From contig CAZTCI010000001.1 of assembly GCA_964612665.1 (NCBI GenBank), positions 508,896 to 572,895 on the forward strand: DNA of 64,000 nt. The letters are read 5' to 3'. Of this stretch, positions 1 through 21,000 are shown piece after piece (within the stretch, counting starts at the first letter, position 1; each line of letters opens with the position of its first letter). The translations under genes were made by a program, and so were the position numbers. Origin of the DNA: an uncultured Planctomycetales bacterium. GTDB lineage: Bacteria > Omnitrophota > Gorgyraeia > Zapsychrales > JAHFFX01. The notes beneath the pieces were generated by a model. The model worked only from the letters and a program-made list of their open reading frames with translations. It did no database searches and was not told where the DNA came from.

Positions 1-3000
1 ATGCAGCACACTTCCTAAACTGTAGTAATTGGGAAGCGGTCGCGTTAAAACAGCGGTCAAGAGACCTTCGACCCAGGCGAGGCGAATGTCGACGTGCTCT
101 GTTAAAGAAGTGATTTGATAACCAGGCTGGCTTTTAATAAATTCCCACTGCTGCTTGATTTGACGCACAAATGAAACGACGCGGTCAAACACCGACTTGA
201 TTTCGCCAGCTATATTGTCGTGCTGTCTTTTAATTGTTTCGTTGATCTCTTTAATTAAGTCCATTAGGTTTTCATAACTGAACTCTTCTTTAATGGCCAA
301 TGAACTTTCTCTTTGAGTGGCAGCATCAGTTATCTCATCCCAATAAGACTGCACAGTTTCAGTAATAAGCTCCAGGGCGTTTCTCACATCATGCAAGCTG
401 AATAGCATTACTGCTTCAGTTTCTTTACCTTCTTCTTTATTCTCCGACGGAGGGATCTCCTCTCCAAAAAGACCGGCCACCAAATTACAGAGTCTTTCTC
501 GTCCAGCGATCTTCGGAATACGGATGACCTTACCTTTATAATCTTGGTTAGGTTCAACTTCAGTCCAGTATAAAGAATCTGTAATACCATACCCTCTAAA
601 ATCATAAGCCAGGATATCGTCGTCTTCACCACTTCGAATGATCATGGGATTAGGGAATCCGATTCTTTTCATTTCCACAATCAATTCAATGCCCGCATTA
701 TTCTTTCCCATCTGATTATCCGTCAACAATAAGTCAACGAGTTTTCCTTCTGCCAAAAGCTGATGATACGTTGATAAAGCCTTTTCCTTGTTGGCAGCCG
801 TATATACTTGATAACCTCTTTGTATTAAATCATTGGATATTGTCTCAAGCACGTCTTCGTCGTCGTCAACCAGCAAAATTAAGCGTTTATACGCCTGAAC
901 ATTGGGAGTTAAAATGGATAAAAGAACAATCATCATTAACCAATCTAACGACACAAAAATGCCTAATGTGGCTCTGGACTCCACTCGCGTTGAATTCTCC
1001 AACCCATTGAACCACCGTTCGACAATTAGCTCGAAATTCCGCAGTTTCGGATCGAATTGCGCTCTCATTTGGATCAGAAGCGATTGGATTTCCTCAATAT
1101 CTCTGAGCGAATTCATTCTAAAATCGGCTTCAAGAATTTTTCGTAAGGAATCAATTAGATATTGTTTCCCATCGGGGATAAAGGCCTTAAGTAATTCTAC
1201 GATTCTGGTCCTCGAGAATCCTCTATTCATCAAGCGCAAAACATGTTGGTTATTTAAAAAGGCCACAATATTAATTGCCGCAAGAATGTCGACATCTTCT
1301 AGGAGGAAAAGCATTTCGTTTAGTGAAATAAATTGCCCGGCTATTCTTAAATGCCAACTGAAAGAAGTCTTAAATTCTTCTTTTCTCGGCAGGCGATCCG
1401 CTTTATTTACAATCCGCATAAAACGCGCCAGCGAATTGATGCCCATTAGATAACCATCAAACGGTCCTTGTTTTAAGAGTTGCATTGCGAATATATCAGT
1501 CAAAAACTGCGGCGTAAGATCCTTTGTGTCCGTCGTCGAATAAAGTGGAGAGCTACGATTGAAAAGCTCTCGAAGGAACTCATAATAGGACAACACATTT
1601 TTCTGAATGTCCTGATAATCAGAAACTCCCGCATCAACAGCCAGCGCCACGGCCTGGCCAAGCAAAGCCAAGTACTGCGGCTGGCTGATTCCGACGGGTT
1701 CAGTGAGTCTCCATAAATCAGAAATTAGCGTGTCGACACTTACTGGAATATTATCTACCCCAATTATGTGCTTGAATCGATTGAAGCTGGCAGCGACCAG
1801 ATTCTCATCGTTCCTAGATTTATCCAACCAAACTTTCTGCCACTTTTCAACCGATGAGAAGAATTCCACCTGAACAGCCGCAGGTTGTCCAATATCAGCA
1901 TCTAAATTCTCCTCGAGAATACGACCGTTGCTCAACACCAAATAATTAACAGGAAGCATTCGGATATAATCCAAATACATCAAACGATCCTCATCCCTAA
2001 AATCTTCAATCGCCGGTTCGATGAGAATGATTTGGATCGGTACTTTGAGACCAAACACCGCCTGCATGAGGGCAATAGCAAACTTCTTAAAAATGCAGTC
2101 AAATGCGGTACTGCCGATCAAAAAGACAGTCAATTTCTTGGAGTCTCGCTCTTGATTTTCAATTAAAGATTTCAAAAACTGGGCGGTTGAATGTCGCGAA
2201 TTGCTTGCGTGCCAGCGCTGAATTATGCGGTCAGGGCCGACGGGAGGATTCTCCGATTCGATGGCCGAGGAGAGAATTTTGCAAGGTTGCTGTGCCACTG
2301 AAAGTTCTTTCACGTCAACCGTTTTTTGATTCCACAAAATGGAACGTAAAAGATTGCCTGCTATTTTTGCGGCACTTCCTTTTGGCGAAGCCGAATAATC
2401 ATTAACAACATCGATTCCAATGCCCCGTACCGCCGCGATAGCTCCTACTGATACGAACAAGCCTGTCACAGCGCTTAAAACTGTCGGCAAAATCTGCGCC
2501 AGCATCCATAGGAAGAAGGTTAGAATATCACCGTGGGGTAAAACGATCATTTCATAACTTTCTTCATCCGACGACATAAATAGTTCTTGACCTTCCAACT
2601 CTTCTTCTAACGATGACAGCCCTTGAAACTCCTGCGTCAGATGTTCCCAGCTAAGTGGTATCTGTCTTTCTTGTGCCTGTATCATGACCAACTTTGCTTT
2701 TTCTTCATCCACACCTAATTGTTGAGCCAGGGCTTTGGGATTATTAATTAGCTCGTACCATTGTTTTTCTGTTACTTGTTTTTGCAAACGCCAGTAGCGA
2801 AGTAATTCTTGGGAGTGACCAAATTTCGCTTCCAATAAGCGTTTAACCACGTTTCTAAAAACAGCTATTACCATGTTATAAGTTAACGCGCCTAGGGCCA
2901 TGAGATAAAATGAGAAATGGAAAGAATAAACTGCTTTTGCTTTTGCTTTTGCTTTATCTTTATCCATCTTGAACTCTGCATCGGTAAATGCCAGCAAATC

Positions 3001-6000
3001 TGTGAATATAGAAATTCTGACTTGCCATTGACTGGAAAGTTTATTCCACGCTGTTGGCTTGCCATCAAATGTAATGATTGATGGCAATTCGTAAGATTGG
3101 CCCTGGACTTCTGAAATCCAATATTGTCGTATCCGGGATTTACCGAGAAATGTTTCGTCACTTCCAACAACAACGAGTTCTTCGATCAGTAATATTTCGA
3201 TAAAAACTCCCTTATCTTTCGCATAATCCATAATAATAGCGGCGGCATTCAAGAGACAATCGCCATATTTCCCGCCGAGCAGAACAACCTGAATACCGTT
3301 TTCTTGGAGAAGGAGATCTAAGAATTTATAAATACGCTGACGGTCTTCTTTAGAAGATTCATGAATTTTTTCGGGCTTGGGTTCTTCTAATTCTTGAACT
3401 ACGATCCCACGCTTTTTTAATAAAGTAACCAAAGATTTAAAAATCGGCTGCATCTCTCTTCCCAAATCACCAGAAACGCTACGATAATCCCTAACTTCGA
3501 AAATTCCAATTGTGAGAGACCTGATTCGATTTATAGCTACAAAAGATTCTTGAGATGATGTGTATTGATTTCGGCGTTTTTGTCGTTGAATAATAATAAA
3601 CTTGCCAAATTCAAAGATAACTATGCCCAAAATAATACTAACCATTCCCACAGTAAATCCCAACATCCCGGCCGTTTCTTTGGTGGCCTTTAAATAAATA
3701 ACATCCGCCGATAAATCTTTATGACCACCCACATTGATAATCATCTGCTGTTCATACGCTAAAGAAAGCGCGGCCGCTTCGTTGATTTCAAATCCGGCGG
3801 ATTTGACCTGAGCGATCAGTTGGTCTTTAAGTTCGCCGAGCGGACCAAAGGATTCTTCAATCATTTCACCATTGAAGGAGACGAGATGTTTAGTTGCCTT
3901 AATAATATGTATTTCACCTCCATGGGAAAGGACGTTATAAACCTCAGATAAAACTATGGACGGCCTCGTCGATTCAAGCACGAAACTAAGCAAGGCCACA
4001 TCAAACGTCTCTGGCGCAAACGACAAATGCTGGGCGTCTCCATTCACCCAGAGACCATCGCTTACTGTGTGTTGCACGATGCGTATCTTTGAGAAATTAT
4101 TATCTAATCCAACAACGACATTCCCCTGTCTTCTTAACTTACCGGCGATGCCGCCGGAACCAGTACCTACATCCAAAATACGATGACCGCTCCCAATTTC
4201 CTGCAGATACCAAAACGAGAGCATAAAAGAATTATTAATAGTGTGCCGCAACAAATCCTCCAACGTTATGATGATGGGCTTACGCACGGCGGCAACAGAG
4301 ATCATTACTACAAGCAGCATCCATTTTATTAATCCGACGAACCAGATCATCGAAATCAAAGAATAAATATCTACATACAGCGAATTATATTGGCCTTGTT
4401 TATAATGTTCATTCGCACGCCTGATCAATTCTTCATGGATCCGATCACCAATCGGAATCATCCCTCGCCGGTGATTATCGGCCAAATATCCGAGCGCCTC
4501 TGCCAATGTTTGCGCGGCGATGCCGAAAAATAGGCGGACATCATTTGTGCCCATTATGCGGGCCGCGGGATTGGGCGCTGGGGGTTTTTCACGCGCGATA
4601 AACTGGCGGATTTCTTCCAGGACATTGAAGACTTCGGTGAGTTGTTTGAGTGTCTTGACCGATAAATGCGGTTGCGGTTCAACAAAGACAATTGAGTTGA
4701 CCAAGGCCAGCAGATGGTTTTGAATTTGATATGCATAATTATCCAGGTCTTTTATATTGGTCTGCTCGGCAACATGCATTTCATAATCTAAATCTTGATT
4801 AGGAAGATCAAGGATTTTGATCGACAACAGCCCTTTGTGTTGCATCTGTTCCAAAGCCGTGTACAAGGCGGCCATTGATTCCATGAAACCTTCACCCGAC
4901 GGAATATAAGTTTGATTCTTTAATTTCGGACCTTCGCTTCTCTTATCTTTCTTGGGCACAGACTCTTTCTGCGTGTAAGGTAAGAAAACGGCGCCTAATT
5001 TTTGGTTGTCTTTCTTGCCATAAAGGAAAAATTCAATCGCCAGCTGCGGAAAGACCCGGACCGTTTTGGGCAAAGCATCAATAGAAAATCTTTGTATTGT
5101 GACGTCCGCTTTCTTAATCGAGACATACTTGGGGTCCTTAAAGAAAATGACCGCTTCTCCATAATCCGTTGAAATCAGGAACTCAACCTTTTCGCCGGCT
5201 GCAAGATTTTGCTCAACCGCTTTCAAATTGATCGTCAATTCAGACTGGGAATTCTGTTCAAGTACTTCTTGTTGGGAGATCGGCTGTCGTCGAGGATGAT
5301 AAGAAGCAACGTCGAATGAACTTCCTTCCAGCAGCATAAGGATAGTTACGACCAAATAGATATTTTTGAAAAGTTGGAATGAAGATTTAAAGCGCGACGC
5401 GAAAACAGCAATTAAAACTAACACCGCGATAATTACCCAAAACTCTTGTGAATGAATAAGGGAAAAATTACTTCCCTCATCAACAGCATTCAAATCTCCA
5501 TTCTTGGCTCGAACTTCCCAAGTTTTATCAGCTTGTTGGTAAGAATTCTTTTGAATCGCCTCTCTAACTCTTTGAGTCAAATCATTTTCGTCGATGCCGC
5601 CAACGTCGATCCAATTCACGAAGGCAGCAATAATATGCTCCTGAAATTCCTCCGAACTTGCCGACATCCTCACTCCGATTTCCATAAATTCTTTGGCCGC
5701 CCTTTTGAGTTCTTCAATGGCTTGACTGCGTAATGACAAATCCTCGATGCTTCTCGCCAGCGTCCATCTCAGCTGATTGTTTAAATACCGTATGAACGTC
5801 TTTAATTTCTCCATATCTCCCTCGAGTAACTTAATTTTCCATAATTGATTGGCCAGCCGGCTGATCGTTTCAAATGCCTTTTGCCAGGTCTTTTCCGACG
5901 ATGAAAGCGAAAGACGCTCTGCCATTAAAAGCAAAGTCTCATCCAAATATTTCAACTCATTCGATGGATAAAAAAATAAATAGCTATCGTAATCATCCAT

Positions 6001-9000
6001 GCGTCCCATTGCGTGGCTATGATAAAGATCTCGCTCGGGAACAAGGGCGATATTCAAAACATAATCTCTGAACGGTGCTTTTTCATAACTGCAATTTTTT
6101 TCGTATCTAAGCCAACCATCGAGATTTTCCATCGCCATTGAAAAAGATCCACGAAGTCCCGGGTTCGCCCTCCAAGCAACGATTTTCAGTAAGAGCTCTT
6201 TCAGTTTGTGATTTTCAAGTAACCGGCCCGTCGCTTGTCCTTGCCAGTTTAGTTCTTCCACATTAAACAACATCTGCGCCAAATATTGCGGAATCGAATT
6301 TAGTCGCCCTTCGGTCCCCCAAAGATCCAGGGCATTTGTTGACTGAGGATCGTTCGAGATCGCAGGATCAAATGTTTTGAAGTCCAGCGCCTCTTTGAGC
6401 ATCCATAACGTTAGATCCTCATAAGTAAAATCGGAAAATCCGCCATTACGCAAAGACAACGGCTGCTGTAATTGTTCACTCATAACAAAATAAAGTCCGA
6501 TCAATCGTCGGAGGCCTTGAATCAGCGGCGGGAAGTCAATCGGATAAGTTCTTTCTTTATCAAAGTGCATTCCAATTGTTCGCACATGCAACAAAAAGAA
6601 TATCGATGTCCAGGCGGTTAACCATTGTTCTTTCAGTTGTCCACCTGCCCAAAACCACATTCGTCGGGTTCCTATTTCAAATGGTTCGACATCCTCAAGC
6701 GAAGCCAAGCGCACAATATCCTGATTGGGATGACCATACTTTGATAACCAGCCTCTGGCTTTCCAATACCGACGCAGACAATCGCCGATCAATGAAAGCT
6801 CTTGCTCCGAAAGTGGGAGCAAATGACCATCTCCTGTCTCACTATCCATTCTTTCAGAAGTAGCATTCACAATTAGATAACCTAAGAGCTTTGTGAAACG
6901 TTGACTCTCGTGAGTGAGAGAATCAAAAATGGTTGAAGCATTAGCATTATGCAGGCTATACAAAACATATCTTCTCTGCTTTTCGTTATAATGTTCCGTA
7001 TTCAAATCTATCTTAGAATCTAACGTAAATTCCCACGCAGGTGGAAGTAACATGCCTTGCGAATTGATATACCCTAGTTGAACAAGATCATTAAATAACT
7101 GTGGCAAGTCTTTGTCAGGAACAATCCCCTTAAAACTTTTCAAGCTTACCGCATCATATTGATCGAGGAGGTTTGTCAGTGTTTCGATCCATTGCGCAAC
7201 GGGCCGCGATGTATTCTGAGCATTGGAATCAGTTAAAGTAACTTTCTGCTGTCTGACTGAGAGACGACGCCAGAAACTCTCTCCCCATGACAACTTCAGC
7301 ATCATCAAAATCCCGAAGACAATCAGCGCAAGCCATCCCCAACTTCCTTCCGCACCCGTCGTTGGCCAGAGAATCAGATGGCTGCTCAATTCATTTCCCG
7401 ACGCTGATTGAGCACTCAACATCACGATCCCCATCGCAGCGGCAATCATTCCGCCGCGCAGGCGTCCCCAAAATCCTCGTACTAAGCGAATTGCTAACGT
7501 AACAACGAGACCCGCAGTAATGACGGTCAATAATCGATTGAGAATAGATTGCAAAAGGTTTGAAAAAATAGGGTTGTGCTGCAGGAAGGAAAGAAGCGGA
7601 GTATCTTTTTTGCCGACGGGCGGGGCGTTGGGCTGCATCTTAGCATAGTGCCACACAATCAAAATACTAACGCCAATTAAAATCAATAGATATTGCACGA
7701 GTGAGTAGGTGTCCATGTTGAAAATGTTATTTGTTTTAGTCTCCCGATCAAAACCTCCATCCCGTTCGGCGAGCATCAGAAAAGCCGTCTCGGCGATGTG
7801 CATGTCGCTGATGCCGTGATGCAGATAGATTTTATGCACGCTGCGCGTCGAAAGACCGTTTCTGACGAGGCCCAGGTCCCAAACGCCCTGTCCTAACCGC
7901 AACCGATCACCGATTCCAGCGAGAAACTCCGGCGATGCATCCGCGACGGTAACAACCGGGGTGAACTTCCGTTCAGTCTTTGGAATTAATTTTTCTAATT
8001 GTTCGAATAGATTTTCTCTTCCTAACCGTCCAAGAAGAAGATTGGGGCTCGTCACCACAATCACATTGGCGTAAATGGGATAATTTTTATGAAGTTTCAA
8101 AAGCTCGTCGGACGCGGACAAGGCGGCCTGGACCATAGGACCGATGGCGACGATGTTAACCACATTGTCATCGGGATGGTAATCAGGAAGATGGCTGTAA
8201 TCGACGAGCCGGTAACCGCCTTTGAGAATTTCTGGGCCGAGACGCTTGATGGCGGCGGGTTCATTAAGGCCGGAATAAGTTTTCTGTTCCCGCAACCGCC
8301 GGAACAATCCGCTGCGTTCAACCAACAGGCTCGATGCGCGGATATACACGGCGTTACGCCCGTGGTCATGGCCGGTCAACATAAGTTCAAAGGTTTTTTT
8401 CAATATATAATCTAACTCGTCAAGAAAAGCCGGTTCCCACATAACCGTGTTGGGCATCGCCCGGCCGATGTCCGCCGAGACACTCGATTGATGTTGAGCA
8501 CCGTCGGTGGCCAGCGTTGGGCCGGACGGTGTTCCGACAGCAATAAATTGTGAACCCCAGTACTGGGCGTAAAAAAATTGATCCAGCGCCCGGCGGAATA
8601 AAAACATATCATAGATCGTAACAACCGGAATCAAACGCACGCCAAACAAATCATAAGCCTTGCCAAAAGCCGCCGCCAAGGTCACGGCGTTCATTTCTGT
8701 AATGCCAATGCGTAAATGATTTCCCGCAAATGAATCGGCGCTGACAACACCTTGAGTGGCGCCAGGAGCAATCATTCCCGTAGATGATCCAACATCCGGA
8801 GAAATCGTGACCAACCGCGGCGCTATTTTCTGCCAGAAGCGATCGTCTTCGGAAAGGTCCGCCGCCGCCGATTGACTGAGTAGACCTTTCACCCTATTAA
8901 TCGACATACCCAGATATGTCTGCGTTGGAATTCTCCCGCGGGCCGGTGAATAAAGTTTTTCCGGCCAGATTTGATTCTTTAATTCTGCTTCAAACGCCGC

Positions 9001-12000
9001 GCGGTTTGCATCGATCATTTGCTGCGCTTCGGCGGCTTCATGATCTAAACGTGAACGGACATTCTTAAGTGTCTTAAACTCGACGGAAGTTTCATTGAAA
9101 TTGGGGAATGGATTATCTTGCGGCATGCCTAATTCGTTACGGACCTGCGCCAATTCTTCGGGAGTCAATAACTGCGAATGGTTTCCTTCCTGACCAATCA
9201 TCGGTCTTAGACCCCAGCCTTTGATCGTATGCGCAATAATTACCGTCGGGCGATCGCTGGCGCGGGCTTCGCTCAAGGCTTTGATTAACTCAACCAAATC
9301 ATGGCCGCCCAAATCGGTAAAGAGCTCATAGATTTTTTCATCGCTGTATTTCTTCAAGAACCGCTTTATTGGCCTTTTCCTTTCCAAAGAGAGTTTCTTA
9401 TTCTTATCATCCAAGGGAAAAGGCCTAATATTGACTTTTGTTTCTTCCTTTGGATTCACAAAAGTCAATAAAGAAGAACGTTGTTCGATCATCCAAGCGC
9501 GGATTCCGGCGCCGTTTTGAGCGGAAAGATTTTGGTAAACTTTCTGGTCGATTGTTTCCATAACTTTCCTAAAGACACTTCCCCCTCGTCGGGCAAAAGC
9601 CGCTTGCAATTTTCGGCCCCAGCGCAGTTCAACGACTTGCCATCCAGCCGCCGCGTACATTCCGCGCAGTTGATCCAATTTCCAGTTTTCGGTATTTCCG
9701 TCGAGTGATTGGCGGTTGTAATCGACAATATGCGTCACGCGGTCCAAGTTAAATTCTTTCACTAACGTCAGAATCTCCCGCAGGTTTCCTTCTTCAGATT
9801 CAGCATCACCCAAGACCGCGAAGAAATGCGAATCAGAAACCGCATGGCCATGCGCCTTGAGCCATTTCCAAACAACGTTAAGTGCTAAGGCAACCGCCGG
9901 CCCTATGCCAACCGAGCCCGTCGGAATTTTGACGCCGTCCGGGTCCGCCATTCCCGGATACGCGTGCAGGCCTGGTTTGTCTAATTCATCCGTGTTGACT
10001 TCCGGATGCTTGGCGATGAAGGCGGCTTTTAATTCTTCAAGTTCTTTTAAGACTTCTGGCGCAAGACGGCCCCTGATATCTTCAGCCCTGAAATCAACCG
10101 GCAGCCGGACAGCGTTATCACGCAAACGATAAAGTGTATCGACGGGTAATCGACCTAAAAGATATTGAATGGCATGATACACCGGCGCGGCGTGCGGTTT
10201 GTGGGCGACAAAATCATGACCGCGCATGACAGCCAGCTCGAGGGCGATCATAATGTGCAATGCAGACGCGGATGCAGCCTGGTGCCCGCCGGTTTTAGGC
10301 AGTTCATATTTAATTTTATTGGCTTCATCAATTTCACCGATTGAAATCCCAAGCGCCCGACGGGCGATGCTTTCTAAAGCTTCGATGTCCTTCGGTGCAA
10401 ATCCTTCCGGAATTTTATCATTTCTATTTCGGGGAGGCCGGTGTCCGGATGAGCTCATTGCAACAATCATCATCGTGGACAAGAACAACGCAGCCACATG
10501 TCCACCTACGAAGTAGGACACAGCCAATAGTCCATCCAGTGCCAGCGCGATGAGGACAAGCGCAGTTGCAAATACGGTGGAGAGGTTTTGATCTGAGCAT
10601 TCTTTTATTCCATTTTTTGTTTTTTTGGTTTCCTGAGCTGAAAACTTTTTCCACCAGGCAAACGTTTCACTCAAACCCGTCCCAATATTCTTTTGTCGTC
10701 TCAACTTGTTGACAATCAAAATGATTAATGTTATGTTGGCGTCGAAAAGATCATTGATCAATAATTGCGTGGCCCTCTTTGAAAGATGGGAGAATCGTAA
10801 GTGAAGATCTGGGAATTTGAATGGGACAACTGGAATATTGAGCATATTGCTAAACATTCCGTAAAATCTCAAGAGGTAGAAGAAGCTTGTTATCGCCGCC
10901 ACGTCGCTAAGAAAACTAAAGATGACATTTATCTTGTCTATGGTCAAACGTATTCTGGCCGTTATCTTTTCATCGTTATTAAATATAAATCTAAAGGAAT
11001 TGTTTACCCTATAACCGCTCGAGACATGACTGATTCTGAGCAGAGATTCTTCCTTAAACGGAGGTAACATATGATTAAGAAGTCTTCTGTAATCCCAAAA
11101 TTTAAGAATGTCGCCGATGCGGCTGAATTCTTCGATCAACATGATACGACCCAGTTTCTCGACGAATTGCAACCAGCGCATCTTAAGTTCCCTAAGCCCA
11201 AGCATCTTTTGATCACCTTGAAACCTAAACAAATAACGAGGCTCAGACGCTTGGCCGACAAAATGGGTAAACCTTCCGATCAAATTGTTGAGCAATGGAT
11301 CACCCAAAAACTTGCCGAAGGGTAATGATCTGCCCAATGTGGCACGGCTCAATTTCTTTACAATCTCTTTAAAAACGCCTTTCGCTTTATCTGAGGATTT
11401 GGTTCGAATCGTCAGTATCAACAGCAACACATCAACGGCCAACACAAGGAACATCAAATGTAATCCCGGTCCCGGAACAAAATATCCTTTAAACACAACC
11501 ACCGGACGTTCCTCATCAGGCAGAAAACCTAATTCCTCGCGGATCTCCTCGGGAGATATTCTTAAAATATGTATGGGCTGAGGATGATCTTCAAAATATT
11601 TTAAGAACAGGCTTGTAATCGTTTGTCCGTTATCAGAAGCAATATGAAGACGGCCCAGAATAAAAAACGTGTCTTTAGCAGCTTTTCGGCCGCGCGATAA
11701 GATATTGATCATATTGGGGAACATGAATGGTTCCCTTAGGTCAATAGCGAATCTAAAGTTCTCCGAGACATTGATCCCTTTCAAAATTTCTTGAACAGCG
11801 GGCTCGGCCTGGCCGACGACATGATTTTCGCGTTTGGCTCTGGCCATGAGGGCTTTTATAAAAACAACAGTCAAATCACGCCAAGTTGTCAAGTCTTTAA
11901 GCATGTCCGCTGAGTTATCCGGGGGCAATGTTACGATCGCGGAAAAAACGAGACTGTTCCGGGTGTTGTAATAAAGAGAAATGCGTCTGTATAACGTTGT

Positions 12001-15000
12001 AACAGGGTGCATATAGCCGGGAGGTAACCATTGGGCCAAATCCTGCCACGTGGGAAGGATGAACAAATTCAACGCAGAATGAATAAATCCTCTTTTTAGC
12101 GATTGCAGTTTATCTAAAGAAACCTTCGAAGGGTCGGACAGCCATTGTTCATATTGCAGATAGTCATCTAATCGGGTGGCCAATTCATAACTCAAAATCT
12201 CCTCGACGCCAAACAAATGTCCTTTGGTACTACGGTTAAAATGGGTCGACACATACCACAGTTCGTCTTCTTTAAACCGGGCCACTCCTTCGACACCCGC
12301 AAAGATTTTCTTGCGTGCGGCCAGGAGATGGATCTCTTCTCTAAATAATTCATGCTCGGGATTGGTATGGTTTTCCCCGATTAAAAACAATCGCGGTGCG
12401 GATTCGGGTTTCAGGCGGACAGCGAGGAAAATTAATGTGCTCAATAAAAACGTCAGGTTTAAACTATTATCGAAACCATGGACGGCAATAAAGAAGCTCT
12501 TGAAATTTTCAGTCTTTTCCAATTTTCTTGACGACAATTCTTTATTGATCTTGTTGCGTTCTGATGACACATAGGCCAGGACAGCATCCAAAAATTTTCG
12601 ATGGATTGAATCTGTGGGTTTTACAATACGGCCATATTCCGCATATAACGATACAGCTTTATCAAAGGAAACTTCCCAACGGAAGCTGACAGTCTTTTGC
12701 CAAACAATGATTTGGCCCCGCCCGACAGATGACAAGAAGGCATTGGCTTTCTCGTCCGACGGGTTTTTCCGCGCCTGCAGCAAAACACACTCTCCATTAA
12801 ATGGAGGATAAAGAACCATCCGGTAAATAAAACCCAAATCACCCCCAAATTTTTGTTTCCTAAATAAATTTTCCAGTGCCTTGAAATGATGTTGTCGGTT
12901 GGAAATATCTCCCCCTCCTTTAGGAAGATATCCGGCAGCAGCATTAATCTTTGACCAAATTGCTTGAACGGCTTTTTGTTTGACATTAAATCTTTCCGCT
13001 ATCTGTTGATCACTTAGACCTTCAACGAAACCATATAAAATATTCAATTGTTTTTCCGTAAATACTGGTTTTGCCACATCGAATTTTGGAAACGGAGGCC
13101 TCCGGTCGACAAGTCCTAACTTTCTCGCTTTTTTGATAAGTTCCCTTCGCTCCGACGTCACAGCCAACACTTTATAAAGTCTCGAAATCTTTGAGCGTAT
13201 ATTGATTGCCGGTGAACTCAGCGCCTGGCCGATCTCAATCGTAGTATTTCCTTTATTAAGCAATCTTAAGATATGAAGTTCAAGCTCACTTAGGATGAAC
13301 GCATGTTTTTTTGCGAAAAGTTGTTTAGGTTTAACCAGCCGCTCAGACGATCCGAAAATCGCCACGCGGTATTCTTCATGCTGATTGAAAAATTTCCAAA
13401 GAAGATAAGGGTAATCATTATTAAAGTCGCGGGGTCCGCTTTTAATTTCCAGATTTAAAAGTTGATGAATTTGGCTCCTTGACTTGCGGATGGTTTCGGA
13501 CCCTGTCTCAAGCTGAGCGGCAATGTCCTTGTCATTTAATCCAGCATAAAGGCCTTTTAGAATGGCTATGTGTCGCGAAGAGAGTTCTTCGACGGACGCA
13601 CAAGATTGAACGCTGCGCGCTATGGCCGCGAGGACAGCGACAAAGATAAAACTGAAATTGGATAAATAATCCGATGGATTTGTAAGGATAAAAAAGTTAT
13701 GCTCTCGCTGCAACCCTGGCAAAAGACTTTGATTATCTCTTTTACGAAAGACTTCAAAGGGTTGAACAAACATAAACTGCGCGCCCGCTGTTCCCCTGCT
13801 AGTTTTAAAAACTTCACTTTGCCTAATCTGATTATTCAACGCATCGAGCGCTTCTTTAAGCGGTTGCGAGGTAATCAAATCTTTCCAGCCTCTTAAGAAG
13901 CCTATCTGTTCGAGCGCGCCAAAGATCCATGGTTCTTCATCAAACACAATAATGGTATCACTAGACCTTAAATCCCTTAATGTATTAAGCAGCCTAACCA
14001 CGACTGGTTGATCGATCCAAAAAGTTCCTTTTAGAATAACAGTCACACTTTCTTGTCCAGCTCGACGTAGAAATTCGACAATATCATCCAGCGCGTTGTC
14101 GATGTGTAACGTTTCCTTAGGGTAAATTCTATTTAGCAAAATTTTTTCTGGCTCCATAAACTGATTCACGAATGATTGCAGCTCCTTATAAGCTCTTTGC
14201 CGGTCTTCATGGTCATAGAGCCGGTCAATTCCGAGGACCAATTGGGCCGGCAGCTCCGCCACAAAAATGTCAACGCCTATTGCGGGATAAATCCGATACG
14301 GTTTTAAGAGACCAACCGCCGCTAAGACTTCTAACTCTCGCCGCCAGGCCTCGGCCAATGGCCCATAATCAACGCTTCCCCGCGATGCCAACCGTCTGCC
14401 TTGTTCTTCAACTATCATGGAAATCGCTTGAATCTGCTGGAGAATTTCTTCTTCGGAAATTATTTTGCCTCCGGTCCGTCTTGTGCTCTTTCGTAACGCT
14501 CGAACCAAAAATATAACCAGCGCGCTAATTGAAATTAGAGCAGCTGCGGCATAAATAAAACCAGTATCAACTAACATCGACGATGATTCTGGATATTTCG
14601 CGTCATAAGTTTTCGCTAATTGATACAACGTCCGCTCTACACGGTCTTTAAGACGGAGGAATTGCCTTTCTGATAGGGTCAATGTCACCATTATCTCTGG
14701 CCAGGAGCATGTCAGAATATGATTATTATTGTTTTTCTCAGCGAAATCACTTTGGCTTGTATCACTGACCGCATCCATAAGGACTTCCAGTTCTAATAGC
14801 GCTTTGACAATTATCTGACTTGTTTCTTCACCTCGACGATAAACATCGGTCATATCTTGTTTGGTTGGCTCCAACCTTTCATCCGTTGAAGGTTCCGGAA
14901 CATTTTCAAGTTCCGTCTCAAAATCAAAAACTTGCTGCTCCAGTTCTCTTCCCTTCTTAACAGCCCAATCCAAGACCGACGCTTTATAAAACAAAAGTAC

Positions 15001-18000
15001 AAATTTCGGCCCGCGCAAATTATGCTTTAAAATATTTAAAATCCTTTCGGCTTCTTCTTGCATCTGGACATAAGAAATCTGGTCTTCATAAATCTGACCC
15101 ATGAGTATCTCAATCAGCTTTCGTTGATCTACATTTATTCTTTCCTCTCTCCAAATTCTCTCGAGGATTGAAGATGTTCCCGACAACTGGACAACCGGCA
15201 TCAGAGTCTCATAAAATTGAAACACCCTCTTTATCATTTCTGATATTTTTTCTGTTCTTTGTCCTTCATGCTGAGGCTTGAACCAAATATCGACTTCCGA
15301 CGTCACAATAAAATTCTTCATCTCTTCGTAATTGGTATTGATCTTTTCTCGAAAACTCTCAATCTTTTCTAATATAACGTTAAAGACTTTGTCCCACCCG
15401 ATTTCAGCTTCGGTTTTGTTTTCATCGGCCGATTTTGTGTCTCCCTCTCGATCCCCTGCTATGCCTTCCGAATGATTTTCAGTGACGATTACCACTATCA
15501 CTGCTCCCACCCACAACATAAAAGAAATGACCGAGAGATCTAAGAAGGAATGCTCATTGTTCCGGTTTCTGTTTCTGAAATTTCTCCTCCGGCCTGATGA
15601 ATTAAATCTTTCTGTCAACCGCCGTAGATCCTCTAAGTTTGCACTCATGCTCAAACCGTAGTCATTAAAAATATCTCTCAGCGTTTCGGTGACTTTGGAA
15701 ATTCCAGAAAAATCGACCTCTTGGCTCAATGAAAGCATTTCCAAGTTATATTGCCGCAGCCAGCCCTGAAATTCCGCGGGGGTGATTCCACGGGATTCCA
15801 AAGCCTCCCAAAGCCGGAGTAATACAATTCCCATTTCTTCGATTGTTTCCGATTGCTGCCGTTCTATTAAATATTCTCCGCTTGTCGCGGGTTCTGGCAA
15901 TCTTGCCGGTTTTTTTCTTGTTTTTTCCGGCCGGGGAATTCTATGGCGAGGAAAGGCATTGTAAACAGCGCGCTGTATATTTACGAGTTCAGTCACTCCG
16001 CTGCTGATGGCATTTTCAGCCGCATGCAATGCCTTTGTGAATTTACTCCGGCTGGAATTGAAAGACTCGAGGAGCCATGGAATAACTTGTTGGTTCAAAA
16101 TTTCTTCACCACGGCGTCTGGCTTCTTCGCTTAAATTAACCTGATGGGATAAAGAAATTCTCTTATTCATCCAGCGGTCTGCGACGACTAATCCTAAGAA
16201 TTTATATTCAGGATACTCATAAAGATAAACACTGTAACGCGGCTCGTCTTCATTCAATTCGACTAACCGGTATGACCTGCCTTCGCCCCGAAAATCTTCA
16301 TAAATTCCTTCACCCAAATCTCTCAAAGAAAACCAGACAAACTCTCCATCTCTAATCTTGAAGATATCCTCCAGCCATCTTCTTTCTTTTGTTATCTGAA
16401 CGAAATACTTTCCGGCCTGCAATTCTTTGGGGGTGGAATTTTGGGGATTAGGTTTCCGGCGTGTGACTAATGTAAACCACAGCCATTCACTCTGATCGCC
16501 GCGTGCCGTAACGATTTTGGCTTTCAGGGAAACATAACCTCGAGTTCCCCATGAATACCAAAGATCAGCGAATCCGCCTAAATACGCGTCTCCGACGTAA
16601 ATTTTATCTAAACGGTAAAGACCTGTAGATACTCTTGGGTCAACAGCTTCAATCCCTTGGCCTTTCTTAATAATCATGTCGAAACCCTTGCGGTGAAAAT
16701 CAGCGATGTCTTTTCTCACATGACTACTCCGCGCTTTAAGCAGCTTTTGTTGCTTTCCTTGAATGCCCCAATAGTGAAGAATCGGGGAACGTTGTAATTT
16801 TCCGCCGATATTTTCTTCAAACCATACCGCAACATACTCGGAATAAACTGAAGACCAGCGCAGCCCTAAGTTTCCATAACGCTTTCGGACTGTAAACGTC
16901 GAATATCTTTTTCCAAAGAGCGGAATCTTTCCGTCGGCGGTAGTTTTAACATTCTCAATCTTAAGCAATTCATATCCTTGGGCAGACCATCGCTGCGCCA
17001 GTTCAAGACTAATGACACTGTATTGGCCCAAATTTTTTTCACGTTGTCCTTCGCGTTTCGATCCTTTAACGACCAGAATTAAACGCTGTTGACGATCGAC
17101 CTCATGCAGCACCATTTCCTGCTTCACTCTTCTCCATAATTTTGTCCACAACCGTATCCAATCTCGACGGCGCGGATAAATCCGTCCAATTTCAATATCA
17201 TTAATAACTCTGGCACTAATGTCTGCCAAAAGGCCGGCGTCTTTTTGGGACATTCCTAATGACTCCCGCACGGCTTTTAATCTCTTCCCTGGTTCTTGAT
17301 AGAAGTGATCCAACAATATCTTCCAGTCTCGCACCCCCCATCTTACCCGTGCCCCTTTTTCTAATCCCTTAATTTTGAAAGGAGTGGTATTGGATAAGTC
17401 AGCGATTTTTTGCGGCGAGAGTTCTAATATATTCCTGAATAACTTTAACTCTCGTCGGGCTTCTTCATACATTGTATTCAACAATAATGCCAAATCATCG
17501 GCTTTCCATCTGGCATTCTTTGACTTTAAATCATTAATTCTATTTCTACTGATATGCGCAAGAGCCGCGAGTTCTTCTGGCGACATTCGCAAAGCTTCCC
17601 GCAATATCTTTAATTGCCGACCGGCCTCTTTATGCAGTTTATTCAATATAATATTCCAACGGTCAACACTCTCCCTAACATGACCATTCTCTAAAGCACT
17701 AATGCGTCTGGCCCTAACCTTGCTCAAAGCACCAACATCTTTTGCCGTCATTCTCAAAGACTTTCTTAATACCTTTAATTGCCGATGGGCCTCTTCATGC
17801 AGGTCCTCGAAGTTCCATAATTCCGATCGGGACATGTTGAGTAATTCTCTGGATCTCTCTAACAGTTCAATCGATTTTTTATCATCTTGCCCCTGTCTTT
17901 GGGAAGAAGCCGCCATGCCAAGAATCACTAAGGATAAAACGGAGTATACCATCCATAAATTGCTTATAATTTGAACAACCGTTAAGATAATAATCGTCGT

Positions 18001-21000
18001 CGGTAAAATGATCAAGATTTGGGCAGATGAGGTTTTGTCGCGATAAGTCTTTTCAAATTTTCTAAGTGATTTCTCGGTTTTAGAAAGGACGTCATTATAT
18101 GAAACAACCATGAAGACCGCTGCTGATACAAACATCAACAACGGCAAAACAAAATGCCCAGTTCCCCGGACACTTTCCCATCCGGTAAAGATCGGCACCA
18201 GAAAGGAATTTTCCACCTCAACATCGGAAGTTGAGGTCATTTTGCTCTGATTTTGCAGGATCCGAGCTATCCGGGAAAGATAGAGAACATAAATAACGCT
18301 TGCGAAACCAATAAGCAACGTGAACAATTCTCCATTGAAAGCAATCATTCCGAAACCAAACAACTTTGTACGATCTTCCATGAATGTTTTAAGGAAATCT
18401 CTCATCTTTTCTTGAATTTGAGATCGAAAGATATCCTGAACCCGGCGAGGCATAATATTCATACGGGTGCCCGCTTGTTTCCATGCTTCAAATTTTTCTT
18501 TGGTGAATTCTGCCATGAGCCATTGATCTTCTTCGATGGTCTTCAACATGCCACCTTTTTGGGGGTCAAACATTTCACCCAAAACTCTTGAAAAGTCATT
18601 CACATCAAAAGCGACCATGCGACCCAGCTTTCCATCATGAGAAAATGTCAGACCGTAATTTTCTCGCCAATTATGAAAATCGCGATCAACCAGTCCATAT
18701 GTCCAAATCCGACGCGTCAAATTCGAGAATTCGTTTTGAATGTGCCGAAGCTCCATTTGCAAAGCACTCACCTCATCCCACTGTTTATGTTTCTCAGAAA
18801 TCTTTATACGACGGGCAATGGCATCCAGCACTTCTCCAACGGGATGCACGCGTTCTTGAACAATCACATAAGGGAAACTGGTAAGTTTCTCATCCACGAC
18901 AATCGTCAAGTTATTTAAAATAGTCAACGTCATGGCAAAAAGATGGCCCAAATGTTCTTTAACCAATAGGTATCCAGGCAACACTTCTCTCTCGAAGTCC
19001 ACGTCGGCCTTCGGGACCTTGATAATAAGATTTGGAAACGCATAGGAGTAATATGCTTTCATCAGCCCGCCTTGGTCCAAATAATGAAAGGTATGACCTC
19101 GTAGAATACCTTCAACGGTGGTGATTCGAATGTGGTCAAGGTGTTCCTGTAAAACAGTATCCTCTATTCCCATTCTACGCCCCCATTGCATCAACCTTTC
19201 AGGCCAGCCCTCCATATAATTGTCCAATAGCGCTTCCAGAAGAGCATCTTTTAAATTGTTCCTGATCCGACGTGATATAGGTTGGAGGTGGCGTTGAATT
19301 AGTTTTTGATATAACCATCTGAGTATTAATATTAGAGTAACAGCAGTAACTGCGATCAACACCCCTACACGCCACCCATGCATCAGCTCGCTAGAAATAA
19401 GCTGGGCGTTGGATTTTTCCGTTGTTACATCAACCTGCGGGGCCGAAACAGATGAAAACATTTCATCCACCAGCCGTTTGGCTTCCTTGGCCGCATCCAT
19501 GCTTGAACTCATTTTTCCCGAAAAAATGGAAATCTCTCGCGGACTTAAATGCTGAACCGTCGTCGGCCGCGCCGCATTCTGAACCGAACTCACCAGAAAA
19601 TCTTTGAGGGTAAAGATCGAACCAATATGGATCGGATTGAAATCGTGGAAGAATCGATGAGCTTCTTCTTTGATTTGGTCAAATGCCGTCACCGTTGGAT
19701 TCCAGATGATATCGCGTCCCAGTAAATCTTTATACTCATCGGGAATTTCTGGAAATTTGCCAACGTTGAGATGATGAATCGAGTGCTTCACATGAGCGAT
19801 AAAGTGCGCATTATTGCCTAAAGGATTGATCCCGACAAACGGCCCGTCCATAATCAAAATACTTTTGCCCCGGAATGCCGGAGGAAGAAGGACGACAGGC
19901 AACTCAAAAACTTCGAATTGATAGTTTTGCTGATTGGCCGGTTCCGCAATGAACCGATTAATATCGCTGTAAACGGCGTAGACAACGGCATCATAGTTCT
20001 TTAATTTTTCCGGAGTTGCCTCCTGAATGAGCACCTGCACATTGAATTCCTTAAGTTTATCAACGGAGATCTCCGCCAGCTTGCGGATGTTCATAAAGTC
20101 TTCCCCAACAAGCAGCGATAATCCCACAGAATTTTGTTTTAACACCTCCGGATACTTTGTCTCGTAAGGCAAATTAAAACGATTTAATAAAGTCAAATAC
20201 TGCTCGGGCGTAACCGCGCTTCCTTCCGCGGCGATTGCATAGTATTGTTCCAAACTCAAAACCGCTTCACCGAAGACACTCAAAAAGCTTTCACGAGAAT
20301 TAATGACTTCTTGGACAGTTTCTGGACTGCGCGGGTGATGATAGCCGCGATGCAAGCGGCGATCCCAATTGCCGGACACGCCGCCGAAGAGTTTGTTGCG
20401 TTCATACAAAGTCACATCGTATCGAGAATCTTGAGCAATAAACCATGCGGCCGTGATCCCGAAGATTCCGCCTCCGATGACAGCGACTTTGCGTTTCGAT
20501 GGAGCAACAAACGCAGAACGGGACGCCGAAGGAGGTATCCCGGCATCGGCACTCAAATCGAAATCAAAGTATGGCTCCTCAAGCATGTCATCCAAATCGA
20601 TTCCCTCGAAGACCTCTCCCGAATTATCATTAGATTGAACAACTTTAGGATTCACGGGTTCTTCATCTTTCCAATTCCATCCGCCCGCTGCGATCTTTTC
20701 ATCAAACAACCGATGCGGATAACGCATAATGACCGCGTTGACGCCGGCGAATCCGCCCATGCCGTCGTGAACATCGTAACGGCCGCGGATGATGTATTCG
20801 CGATTCCAACGCACCGCTCCGTTTTTCTCGTGATAGCCTTGCGCCGCGTCGGGACTGTAGGTCAGCAATTCTTCCAGAGCATCGCGCCAGGCTTGCAAAG
20901 CTTGAATGTAAATGACCGCAGTGCCGATCCCGCCGACTTGCTTGCCTCGCACGCGATAATGATCGACCCGCGGATGTTTGGCCACAGCCAAGACCGATGG

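Follow-up and report, generated by a model that had tools for sequence, protein, structure and literature searches.

A giant open reading frame with an embedded E1-like domain

The window, by which we mean the whole 64-kb stretch of DNA that was analyzed, is occupied by a single stop-free frame on the minus strand (positions 1..63999, frame start at 63999; 0 stops in 21,333 codons), and the remaining five frames contain 849-1344 stops. This portion of a giant ORF is open at both ends and belongs to a protein of >21,000 residues, with ~100 hydrophobic segments and ~40 soluble "beads", and its GC content by codon position is 0.517/0.353/0.471. Most of the sequence is without homologues, and the matches are to many different Pfams with no one repeat dominating. 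Pfam and NCBIfam scans identified beads of the HTH, sigma-70 region 4, HATPase_c, response regulator, methyltransferase and FAD Rossmann types, with regulatory beads (XRE/LuxR/sigma HTH, HATPase_c and receiver) being numerous near the E1-like bead described below. DNA-binding HTH domains are unusually many in the window.

An E1-like ThDP enzyme domain of the homodimeric PDH-E1/transketolase fold was delimited by homology to its nearest relatives at 7753..10413 (887 aa, residues 17863-18749; minus strand, as are all features below). A sequence-only reading of the same DNA had proposed a complete E1-type domain of about 890 aa at 7750-10440, fused in frame and lacking its own start and stop; both proposals are borne out. 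Since the frame is stop-free, no stop codon terminates the E1-like region, which lies within an ORF that leaves the window at both ends; the in-frame ATGs just 5' of the domain fall within a hydrophobic hairpin and none has a Shine-Dalgarno-like sequence. Only one E1 copy is present in the window. Codon usage in the bead does not stand out within the ORF (rank 42 of 103 by RSCU distance). Its GC content is somewhat above that of its neighbours.

Domain identity and predicted structure

The bead was matched by the Pfam models Transketolase_N (1.3e-23), Transket_pyr (5e-10) and PDH_E1_M (7e-8), and among NCBIfam models by aceE (TIGR00759) at 7e-48; the aceE profile check proposed in the sequence-only reading thus returned a match, but one of 163 bits, far under the equivalog cut-off of 860 bits. 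In profile searches against the PDB, E. coli E1p scored 3e-66 and transketolases 1e-28. An AlphaFold (AF2) model of the bead (pLDDT 86.6, pTM 0.88) had E. coli E1p as its top Foldseek match (TM 0.71/0.78), making E1p (AceE; PDB 1L8A/2G25/4QOY) the best PDB match both by sequence profile and by fold. The bead shares the PP/Pyr/C fold with E1p and, as had been proposed, is collinear with it through the C-terminal region (about residues 56-886), at only 24.5% identity. The superfamily and overall fold are also common to transketolase (PF00456/PF02779/PF02780; Foldseek TM ~0.6/0.82), yet the bead is clearly farther from transketolase than from E1p by profile and is ~250 aa longer, carrying E1-type insertions.

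By alignment and in the model, the three-domain fold is complete. The PP (diphosphate-binding) domain (8962..10437, aa 17855-18346) corresponds to E. coli E1p 56-470 and holds a helical insertion that is also found in P0001, P0002 and P0004, relatives of the bead. The expected N-terminal GGH...S.S block is present as GGHQAASASALH (10255..10290), in which the His aligns with E. coli H106. The ThDP/Mg2+ motif, GDAE-x26-N-R-Q (GDAESEEGN-x-NRQSLDG; 9709..9810), had been described as GDxE...N.N...LDG; the motif is there, but its second part reads N-x-Q, matching N260/Q262 of E. coli, and not N-x-N. Also within this domain are an insertion of ~33 aa specific to the bead (the FVNPKEETKVNIRPFPLDDKNKKLSLERKR region, 9373..9471), which is of low confidence in the model and missing from all relatives, and a shortened inner loop with an invariant Asn-His (9178..9183), whose His probably corresponds to E. 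coli H407. The Pyr (aminopyrimidine-binding) domain (8254..8961, aa 18347-18582) contains the catalytic Glu equivalent to E. coli E571 (8695-8697) and the equivalent of H640 (8491-8493), is the site at which the outer loop has been lost, and is followed by the C-terminal transketolase-like domain (7711..8253, aa 18583-18763).

The catalytic-residue alignment gave no sign of a loss of TPP- or Mg-binding or catalytic residues: H106, H142, Y177, D230, E235, N260, Q262, D521, E571, Y599, F602, R606 and H640 (E. coli numbering) are all kept. The substitutions that were found (S109A, Q140K, V192G, M194V, G231A/S, N258D and E522V) occur across the clade to which the bead belongs and hence do not represent decay. 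We infer that the bead binds ThDP and Mg2+, and catalysis is predicted from the residues kept.

Flanking hairpins and topology

Hydrophobic segments flank the bead on both sides, as the sequence-only reading had noted. The upstream hairpin (10456..10590, aa 17804-17848) consists of two helices with a short LDG turn, and its outer flanks are both K/R-rich; the downstream hairpin (7480..7710, aa 18764-18786 and 18822-18840) has a loop of ~35 aa, and beyond it come an Arg-rich stretch and two more weak hydrophobic segments. [quoted passage not shown]

An AceE-like clade distinct from PDH-complex E1

Over 5,800 proteins in the databases, ~790-1,030 aa long, form an AceE-like orphan clade, the named members of which are from Planctomycetota, Bdellovibrionota and Chloroflexota. 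These proteins are often annotated automatically as "pyruvate dehydrogenase E1 component". All of the relatives that were tested scored 127-221 bits against the aceE model, far under its cut-off. The bead is similar to clade members over its full length (31-40% identity, 92-97% coverage, E 1e-102 to 1e-146) and has in common with them the active-site substitutions, the shortened inner loop and the missing N-terminus; it differs in that the members are free-standing genes of soluble size, and in that a loop of 17-23 residues, absent from the bead, is retained in them. On these comparisons, the bead belongs to this large and uncharacterised AceE-like clade, which is distinct from the PDH-complex E1.

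The nearest relatives are two stand-alone proteins, P0001 (1,428 aa, GCA_964583975.1) and P0002 (1,591 aa), to which the bead is 48% identical by BLAST and ~53% identical on trimmed columns. The PP insertion and the deletion of the outer mobile loop (E. coli 541-557) are common to all three, which form one subclade. Given identities of 52.7% (bead-P0001), 53.2% (bead-P0002) and 54.6% (P0001-P0002), the bead is no more diverged from the free genes than they are from each other. Both relatives have an Omnitrophota-type architecture of "N-module - E1-like - C-module", with a signal-peptide-like start, a conserved N-module of ~330 aa and a shared C-module, none of which was found anywhere in the giant ORF within the window. 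The P0001 N-module had 1,228 matches, and those named by organism were nearly all from Candidatus Omnitrophica/Omnitrophota. By inspection, the starts of P0001 and P0002 resemble Sec signal peptides (MKRS...SYA/AP and ...SFA/QT), which hints that the subclade may function outside the cytoplasm, against the topology proposed for the bead.

Relation to Omnitrophota giant proteins

Omnitrophota giants that combine TM helices with numerous distinct enzyme Pfams were known before (10.64898/2026.06.07.730766), with giant proteins of this phylum being treated by West-Roberts et al. 2023, Seymour et al. 2023 and Nielsen & Lui 2026. The ORF resembles the class 1 "multi-enzyme"/Module 1 signal-transduction giants in its size (>10 kAA), in having ~1 TM segment per few hundred residues, in its diverse Pfams, lack of a dominant repeat and mostly homologue-free sequence, and in the presence of PF08241 methyltransferase, PF02518 HATPase_c and PF00072 receiver domains and a weak SecA_DEAD-like match; it differs in being unusually HTH-rich, and its origin in Omnitrophota is presumed. 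The sequence-only reading had considered a central-metabolism enzyme fold within a giant membrane protein to be unexpected. This is less surprising given that multi-enzyme TM giants had already been described; the searched text of the three accounts makes no mention of a transketolase/PDH-E1 domain in giants.

Interpretation

We consider it fairly probable, from sequence and the structural model, that the bead is a full-length, likely active ThDP enzyme that is independent of a PDH complex and forms a membrane-tethered part of a multi-enzyme giant. It would be translated as one unit of the giant multi-domain membrane protein, bind ThDP/Mg2+, and decarboxylate, or transfer a unit from, a 2-oxo substrate without a lipoyl-E2 core, with the TM hairpins anchoring it to the membrane, probably on its cytoplasmic side. 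The active sites of the E1/transketolase fold form between two subunits, so activity would require that two giant proteins pair, or alternatively that an undetected second E1 copy lies beyond the window.

This dimer problem would be removed if the giant ORF were a precursor from which proteolysis freed the bead, with or without its TM hairpins, to dimerise as an ordinary enzyme. The closest relatives are indeed free-standing genes, and post-translational cleavage of Omnitrophota giants was inferred by West-Roberts et al. from internal, C39-like peptidase domains. However, no peptidase domain was detected in the 21,333 aa that the window encodes (the gene extends further), the bead flanks have no recognisable cleavage motif, and bracketing by TM hairpins suggests tethering over release; we regard such processing as unlikely. 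A location on the outward-facing side of the membrane, where the bead would act on environmental or host/prey 2-oxo or keto-sugar compounds, is suggested by the signal-peptide-like starts and Omnitrophota N-module of P0001/P0002 and by the view of Nielsen & Lui that giants with both SP and TM segments present their enzymes to the periplasm or the outside of the cell. We judge this decidedly unlikely in light of the K/R-rich bead-side flanks of both hairpins, which favour the cytoplasm, and of the other beads in the window, which are of cytoplasmic types using DNA, ATP, SAM or FAD. We know of no description of an exported ThDP enzyme, and loading of the cofactor outside the cell would be problematic.

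The sequence-only reading had also raised co-option for a non-metabolic role, and the loss of the outer loop, the plentiful regulatory beads nearby and the ability of an obligate-dimer fold to pair two giant chains would suit a role as scaffold, as dimerisation module or as a sensor whose ligand is ThDP or a 2-oxoacid. Nevertheless, every ThDP/Mg2+ ligand and catalytic Glu/His that was checked is kept and divergence is like that among free relatives, which argues for selection on catalysis and leaves a non-catalytic bead highly unlikely; of the two ideas in that reading, localisation of a 2-oxoacid-type ThDP enzyme at the membrane is more plausible than co-option. As to a captured AceE, also part of that reading, the closeness to E. 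coli E1p in structure and top NCBIfam model is outweighed by the score of 163 against 860 bits, the low identity, the orphan-clade membership, the three-residue shortening of the inner loop, the deleted outer loop, an active site lined by E522V, Q140K and N258D, and the missing N-terminal stretch (E. coli 1-55), the N-terminal region of E1p being the docking site for the peripheral subunit-binding domain of E2 (PMC6270654). The bead was rejected as an aceE orthologue. That it serves as the E1p of a PDH complex whose E2 and E3 genes lie in another part of the genome is very improbable: as the sequence-only reading had it for the vicinity, no lipoyl, 2-oxoacid_dh or E3-type domain turned up anywhere in the window in Pfam and NCBIfam scans, no E2/E3 genes adjoined AceE-like clade members at the 7 loci examined, and Omnitrophota have been reported to oxidise pyruvate via PFOR, with OGDH missing in 176/176 genomes. 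Least credible of all is a misassembly or sequencing error that fused an ordinary E1-like gene with unrelated DNA. The higher GC content of the bead could be read in its favour, but indels create stops and do not remove them, so a 64 kb stop-free frame cannot come from error, and the bead has codon usage typical of the ORF, no start/RBS or stop of its own, and a junction with TM hairpins on both sides. The bead would have originated from a lineage-specific stand-alone E1-like gene that was fused into the giant ORF.

Architecture of the giant protein

No stop codon was present in window 1–63999 (minus strand) across the 21,333 codons of the frame starting at window 63999, which was open at both ends; each of the other five frames had 849–1344 stops. 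From the absence of stops and a codon-position GC that is typical of coding DNA (0.517/0.353/0.471), it follows that the window lies inside a single giant ORF, and since the frame exits the window at both ends, the complete gene is longer than 64 kb. The encoded protein has at least 21,333 residues, above the 10,000-aa minimum set for Omnitrophota giants, and carries ~64–103 hydrophobic segments along its chain (by two crude hydropathy criteria) that separate ~40 soluble segments, referred to here as beads. Internal repeats are few and no single repeat is dominant, and at least 12 Pfam families were identified in the window. These included the following: HTH_3/19/31, Sigma70_r4_2, GerE, HATPase_c, Response_reg, DAO/NAD_binding_8, Methyltransf_11/25 (SAM methyltransferase), Transketolase_N, Transket_pyr and TPR_16.

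This protein fits the published description of Omnitrophota giants, with which it shares its size class, many TM segments, many Pfam families and a largely homologue-poor sequence. The V. archaeovorus ORF has 39,678 aa and 42 TM helices and is supported by peptide evidence (PMC10066038), and numerous TM regions have been described in Omnitrophota giants, with divergent SecA domains in "most" (10.1101/2023.11.21.568195). In a further study one class of giants was termed "multi-enzyme", a signal-transduction Pfam module was found to include PF08241 and PF02518, giants with only TM regions made up 46% and were read as membrane-anchored cytoplasmic domains, and 80% of giants were sequence singletons (10.64898/2026.06.07.730766). 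No transketolase or PDH-E1 domain is mentioned in the portions consulted of these three sources.

Identification of an E1-like bead

One bead (aa 17849–18763, window 7711–10455, minus strand, delimited by hydropathy scan) resembles homodimeric pyruvate dehydrogenase E1 (E1p/AceE). BLAST against its closest relatives defined a homologous core of 887 aa (aa 17863–18749, window 7753–10413, minus strand), and the position and size given for an E1 enzyme in the sequence-only reading were thus accurate. The further proposal that this enzyme is embedded in the giant protein was borne out by the stop-free frame and the complete, collinear fold. A separate E1 gene was rejected, as there is no stop and the in-frame ATGs have no RBS and are inside a TM helix; the in-frame fusion, without a start or stop of its own, therefore holds. 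Promoter-like and terminator-like sites occurred at the level of shuffled sequence, and neither a tRNA nor any Rfam match that might split the ORF was found in the window. A recent horizontal insertion or chimera was also rejected, given that the codon usage of the bead is no outlier (RSCU distance rank 42/103); its GC3 is ~1 standard deviation above the mean.

The bead matched the transketolase-like ThDP (thiamine diphosphate) superfamily (PF00456 and PF02779) above the gathering scores and in the N-to-C order of its domains. Transketolase_N was matched at 1.3e-23 (83.9 bits, cut-off 22) and was followed towards the C-terminus, as expected, by Transket_pyr (5e-10, 39.6 bits, cut-off 27), and PDH_E1_M was matched at 7e-8 (32.5 bits, cut-off 23.2). 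The nearest solved relative is E. coli E1p, which aligned in three collinear blocks, and a 60-sequence profile of the bead matched E1p at 3e-66 versus 1e-28 for transketolases. An AlphaFold (AF2) model built on the 60-sequence alignment had a pLDDT of 86.6 and a pTM of 0.88, and Foldseek placed E. coli E1p structures as its best matches (TM 0.71/0.78), with transketolases next. Taken together, the profile, AlphaFold and Foldseek results indicate that the predicted fold is complete and of the homodimeric-E1 type, having PP, Pyr and C-terminal domains in one ~890-aa chain. An internal repeat search of the giant ORF identified no second E1 copy within the window.

The top NCBIfam model for the bead was aceE (TIGR00759), at 163.2 bits versus a curated equivalog cut-off of 859.9. 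With a score so far below the cut-off, the bead is not the captured central-metabolism AceE that had been supposed. The surprise voiced in the sequence-only reading at an enzyme captured in a giant protein was justified in part: the E1-like bead is real, but it is not AceE and multi-domain giants have already been described.

Relatives of the bead

Among 8000 database candidates scored, 5815 matched the bead. The best two matches, P0001 (1,428 aa) and P0002 (1,591 aa), each encoded by a separate gene, had 48% identity to it and were followed by ~1,020-aa proteins at 36% identity and then by thousands of proteins of 790–945 aa at 31–34% identity. Where the latter were named, they belonged to Planctomycetota, Bdellovibrionota and Chloroflexota and were auto-annotated as "pyruvate dehydrogenase E1". 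Matches of the bead to clade members had E values from 1e-102 to 1e-254 with coverage of 92–97%, and the relatives tested scored 127–221 bits against the aceE model, versus the 860-bit cut-off. A scan of the bead against GTDB representative genomes and JGI metagenomes gave one distant match in each (26–27%). The best 120 E1 matches were all 1,591 aa or shorter and so included no giant relative carrying the bead. Examples of the matches ranked below the best two (P0003–P0120) are at L005:6001–8616, L010:6001–8712 and L011:503–3145, and this family spans 790–1,030 aa and has no E2-binding N-terminus where tested.

A neighbour-joining tree grouped the bead with P0001 and P0002. Pairwise identities were 52.7% for bead and P0001, 53.2% for bead and P0002, 54.6% for P0001 and P0002, and 24.5% for bead and E. 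coli AceE. That the bead has diverged no more than the two free proteins have from one another argues for continued selection on it. By sequence, we place the bead in an orphan clade of putative AceE-like ThDP enzymes, nearest to stand-alone proteins that bear an Omnitrophota-type module. No published name for this clade was found, nor was anything relevant in the literature on "AceE-like" paralogues.

By inspection, P0001 and P0002 both have signal-peptide-like starts and share N-terminal and C-terminal modules. The N-module (~330 aa; P0001 residues 27–353, L002:10001–11200; also the P0002 N-terminus) alone retrieved at least 1,228 proteins, of which those with organism names were nearly all from Candidatus Omnitrophica/Omnitrophota, often several per MAG. 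Its presence in the closest E1 relatives provides the one indirect link of the giant protein to an Omnitrophota genome. Its cargo varies and includes E1-like, HAD hydrolase, HEAT-repeat and methyltransferase domains. The C-module common to both proteins contains "GGID.N...P.II.IVPI". Neither module has a Pfam model, and neither was present in the giant ORF.

Catalytic residues and features of the PDH complex

For assessment of the active site we used 25 residues, with their E. coli E1p numbers, that we take to be functional. All 25 agreed with the E. coli E1p sequence at those positions, showing that the numbering is valid. The thiamine-diphosphate motif noticed previously is present as GDAE...NRQ, in which the equivalents of G229-D230, N260 and Q262 are conserved and G231 is replaced by Ala. 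Alignment of the catalytic residues, which had been proposed as a check, revealed that H106, H142, H640 and the cofactor-activating Glu E571 are retained, as are Y177, E235, D521, Y599, F602 and R606, with E522 replaced by Val. The substitutions S109A, Q140K, V192G, M194V, G231A, N258D and E522V were common to all eight relatives aligned and are thus clade characters, not decay. The position of H407 falls in a gapped loop of the alignment, where an invariant Asn-His is the predicted and probable equivalent. The catalytic machinery of the bead appears, from its residues, to be intact.

Several features of a PDH-complex E1 are absent. [quoted passage not shown] E. coli residues 1–55 have no counterpart in the bead, where five unrelated residues align. 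Across the clade the inner loop (401–413) is shorter by three residues and contains an invariant Asn-His-Ser, and the outer loop (541–557) is wholly deleted in the bead, P0001 and P0002, with 17–23 residues there in other clade members. AceE works with E2 (lipoyl acetyltransferase) and E3, whose genes are usually adjacent to its own. As had been remarked from the sequence, no E2 or E3 partner is nearby: domain scans of the 64-kb window detected no lipoyl, 2-oxoacid_dh (E2-catalytic) or E3 domain, and there were no E2/E3 neighbours at any of seven clade loci inspected. Since the clade has neither the E2-binding region nor E2/E3 partners, its annotation as PDH E1 is probably wrong, and the family is probably mis-annotated systematically, across thousands of genomes. 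Omnitrophota are described as oxidizing pyruvate by PFOR, with OGDH absent (giant-protein papers, including PMC10066038).

Two candidate partners within the giant protein were considered. The flavoprotein-like bead (window 18349–20799, aa ~14400–15217, minus strand; DAO 8.7e-9, NAD_binding_8 5e-8) was dismissed as an E3, as only its N-terminal dinucleotide-binding motif is recognisable and this Rossmann start matches NCBIfam models of the amine-oxidase/phytoene-desaturase type, not lipoamide dehydrogenase. A hidden E2-like partner was sought in the first bead downstream, an orphan (window 5446–7281), for which a single-sequence AlphaFold model had an unusable pLDDT of 38.5. A search of 5.8 billion proteins with this bead and the one after it (1,032 aa; aa 18841–19872, window 4384–7479, minus strand) yielded no homologue at E <= 0.001.

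Predicted membrane topology and possible function

Upstream of the E1-like bead is a hydrophobic hairpin with a turn of three residues and K/R-rich outer flanks on both sides. Downstream are two clear helices joined by a ~35-aa loop; these are followed by an Arg-rich stretch and, after two weaker hydrophobic segments, by a further basic region. From these basic flanks and the positive-inside rule we infer that the bead and its neighbours would be on the cytoplasmic face, a location that suits domains requiring ThDP, ATP, SAM, FAD or DNA. The main evidence against this placement is the predicted signal peptides of P0001 and P0002, in view of which the bead may instead be extracytoplasmic. It may also be non-catalytic, or polyprotein processing may release it from the giant chain. 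In our assessment, the bead is most likely a membrane-tethered ThDP decarboxylase or transferase that would act on a 2-oxo substrate independently of a PDH complex. Its activity would require the pairing of two giant chains, since homodimeric E1 has its active sites at the subunit interface.

A more far-reaching reading starts from the subclade of the bead, P0001 and P0002, which has neither the E2-docking N-terminus nor the outer gating loop and keeps the ThDP catalytic residues, and which could represent a novel type of ThDP enzyme. It would work at or beyond the Omnitrophota membrane on 2-oxoacids or keto-sugars of a host or prey, with P0001 and P0002 exported behind their signal peptides and the bead strung on a giant TM protein. 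We regard this as improbable; if true, it would be the first known case of a ThDP enzyme outside the cytoplasm or displayed at the surface, and giant proteins would contribute directly to metabolism in episymbiosis. Omnitrophota giants are mostly "dark" sequence, and the bead is one of a small number of segments whose fold can be assigned with confidence. Because stand-alone relatives of 48–53% identity exist, it can be expressed alone, and together with the assignable fold and apparently intact machinery this makes three questions about the enzyme beads of giant proteins accessible to experiment: their activity, their side of the membrane and their need to pair.

Other domains of the giant protein

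A SecA-like bead (window 42310–44052, aa 6650–7230, minus strand) was indicated by two Pfam matches below the gathering score (SecA_DEAD, 23.2 bits versus a cut-off of 24.6; P-loop_SecA, 19.7 versus 27), and an exhaustive search of 1.84 billion representatives gave weak matches (E >= 1e-9). This bead may correspond to the divergent SecA-like module described in Omnitrophota giants.

A histidine-kinase-type ATPase, HATPase_c (window 39247–39570, aa 8144–8251, minus strand, 8.8e-22), and a response-regulator receiver (window 577–879, aa 21041–21141, minus strand, 1.1e-9) are in the same polypeptide with ~13,000 residues between them. Within the window, GC3 reaches its maximum in the flavoprotein-like bead. 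The longest alternative-frame ORF (window 20245–21168, plus strand, 307 aa, TTG start) lies antisense to a GC-richer stretch immediately upstream of that FAD-type domain; a Pfam scan of plus-strand antisense ORFs gave no matches, and composition is the most likely reason for its existence.

At least seven DNA-binding HTH domains (XRE/HTH_3, Sigma70_r4_2 and GerE) are present in this one protein with ~100 hydrophobic segments (minus strand; aa 1382–1433, 6248–6285, 6581–6633, 10631–10671, 11687–11729, 15571–15617 and 16805–16850). DNA-binding domains on a membrane-tethered giant are odd, and HTH domains in giants are not discussed in the portions consulted of the Omnitrophota giant-protein papers. 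A duplication of ~198 aa at 76% identity, which we call recent, comprises aa 6151–6347 and 6484–6681 (window 43957–44550 and 44959–45549, minus strand), each copy bearing one XRE-type HTH domain. A second repeat pair comprises aa 8296–8362 and 8698–8764 at 78% identity (window 38914–39114 and 37708–37908).
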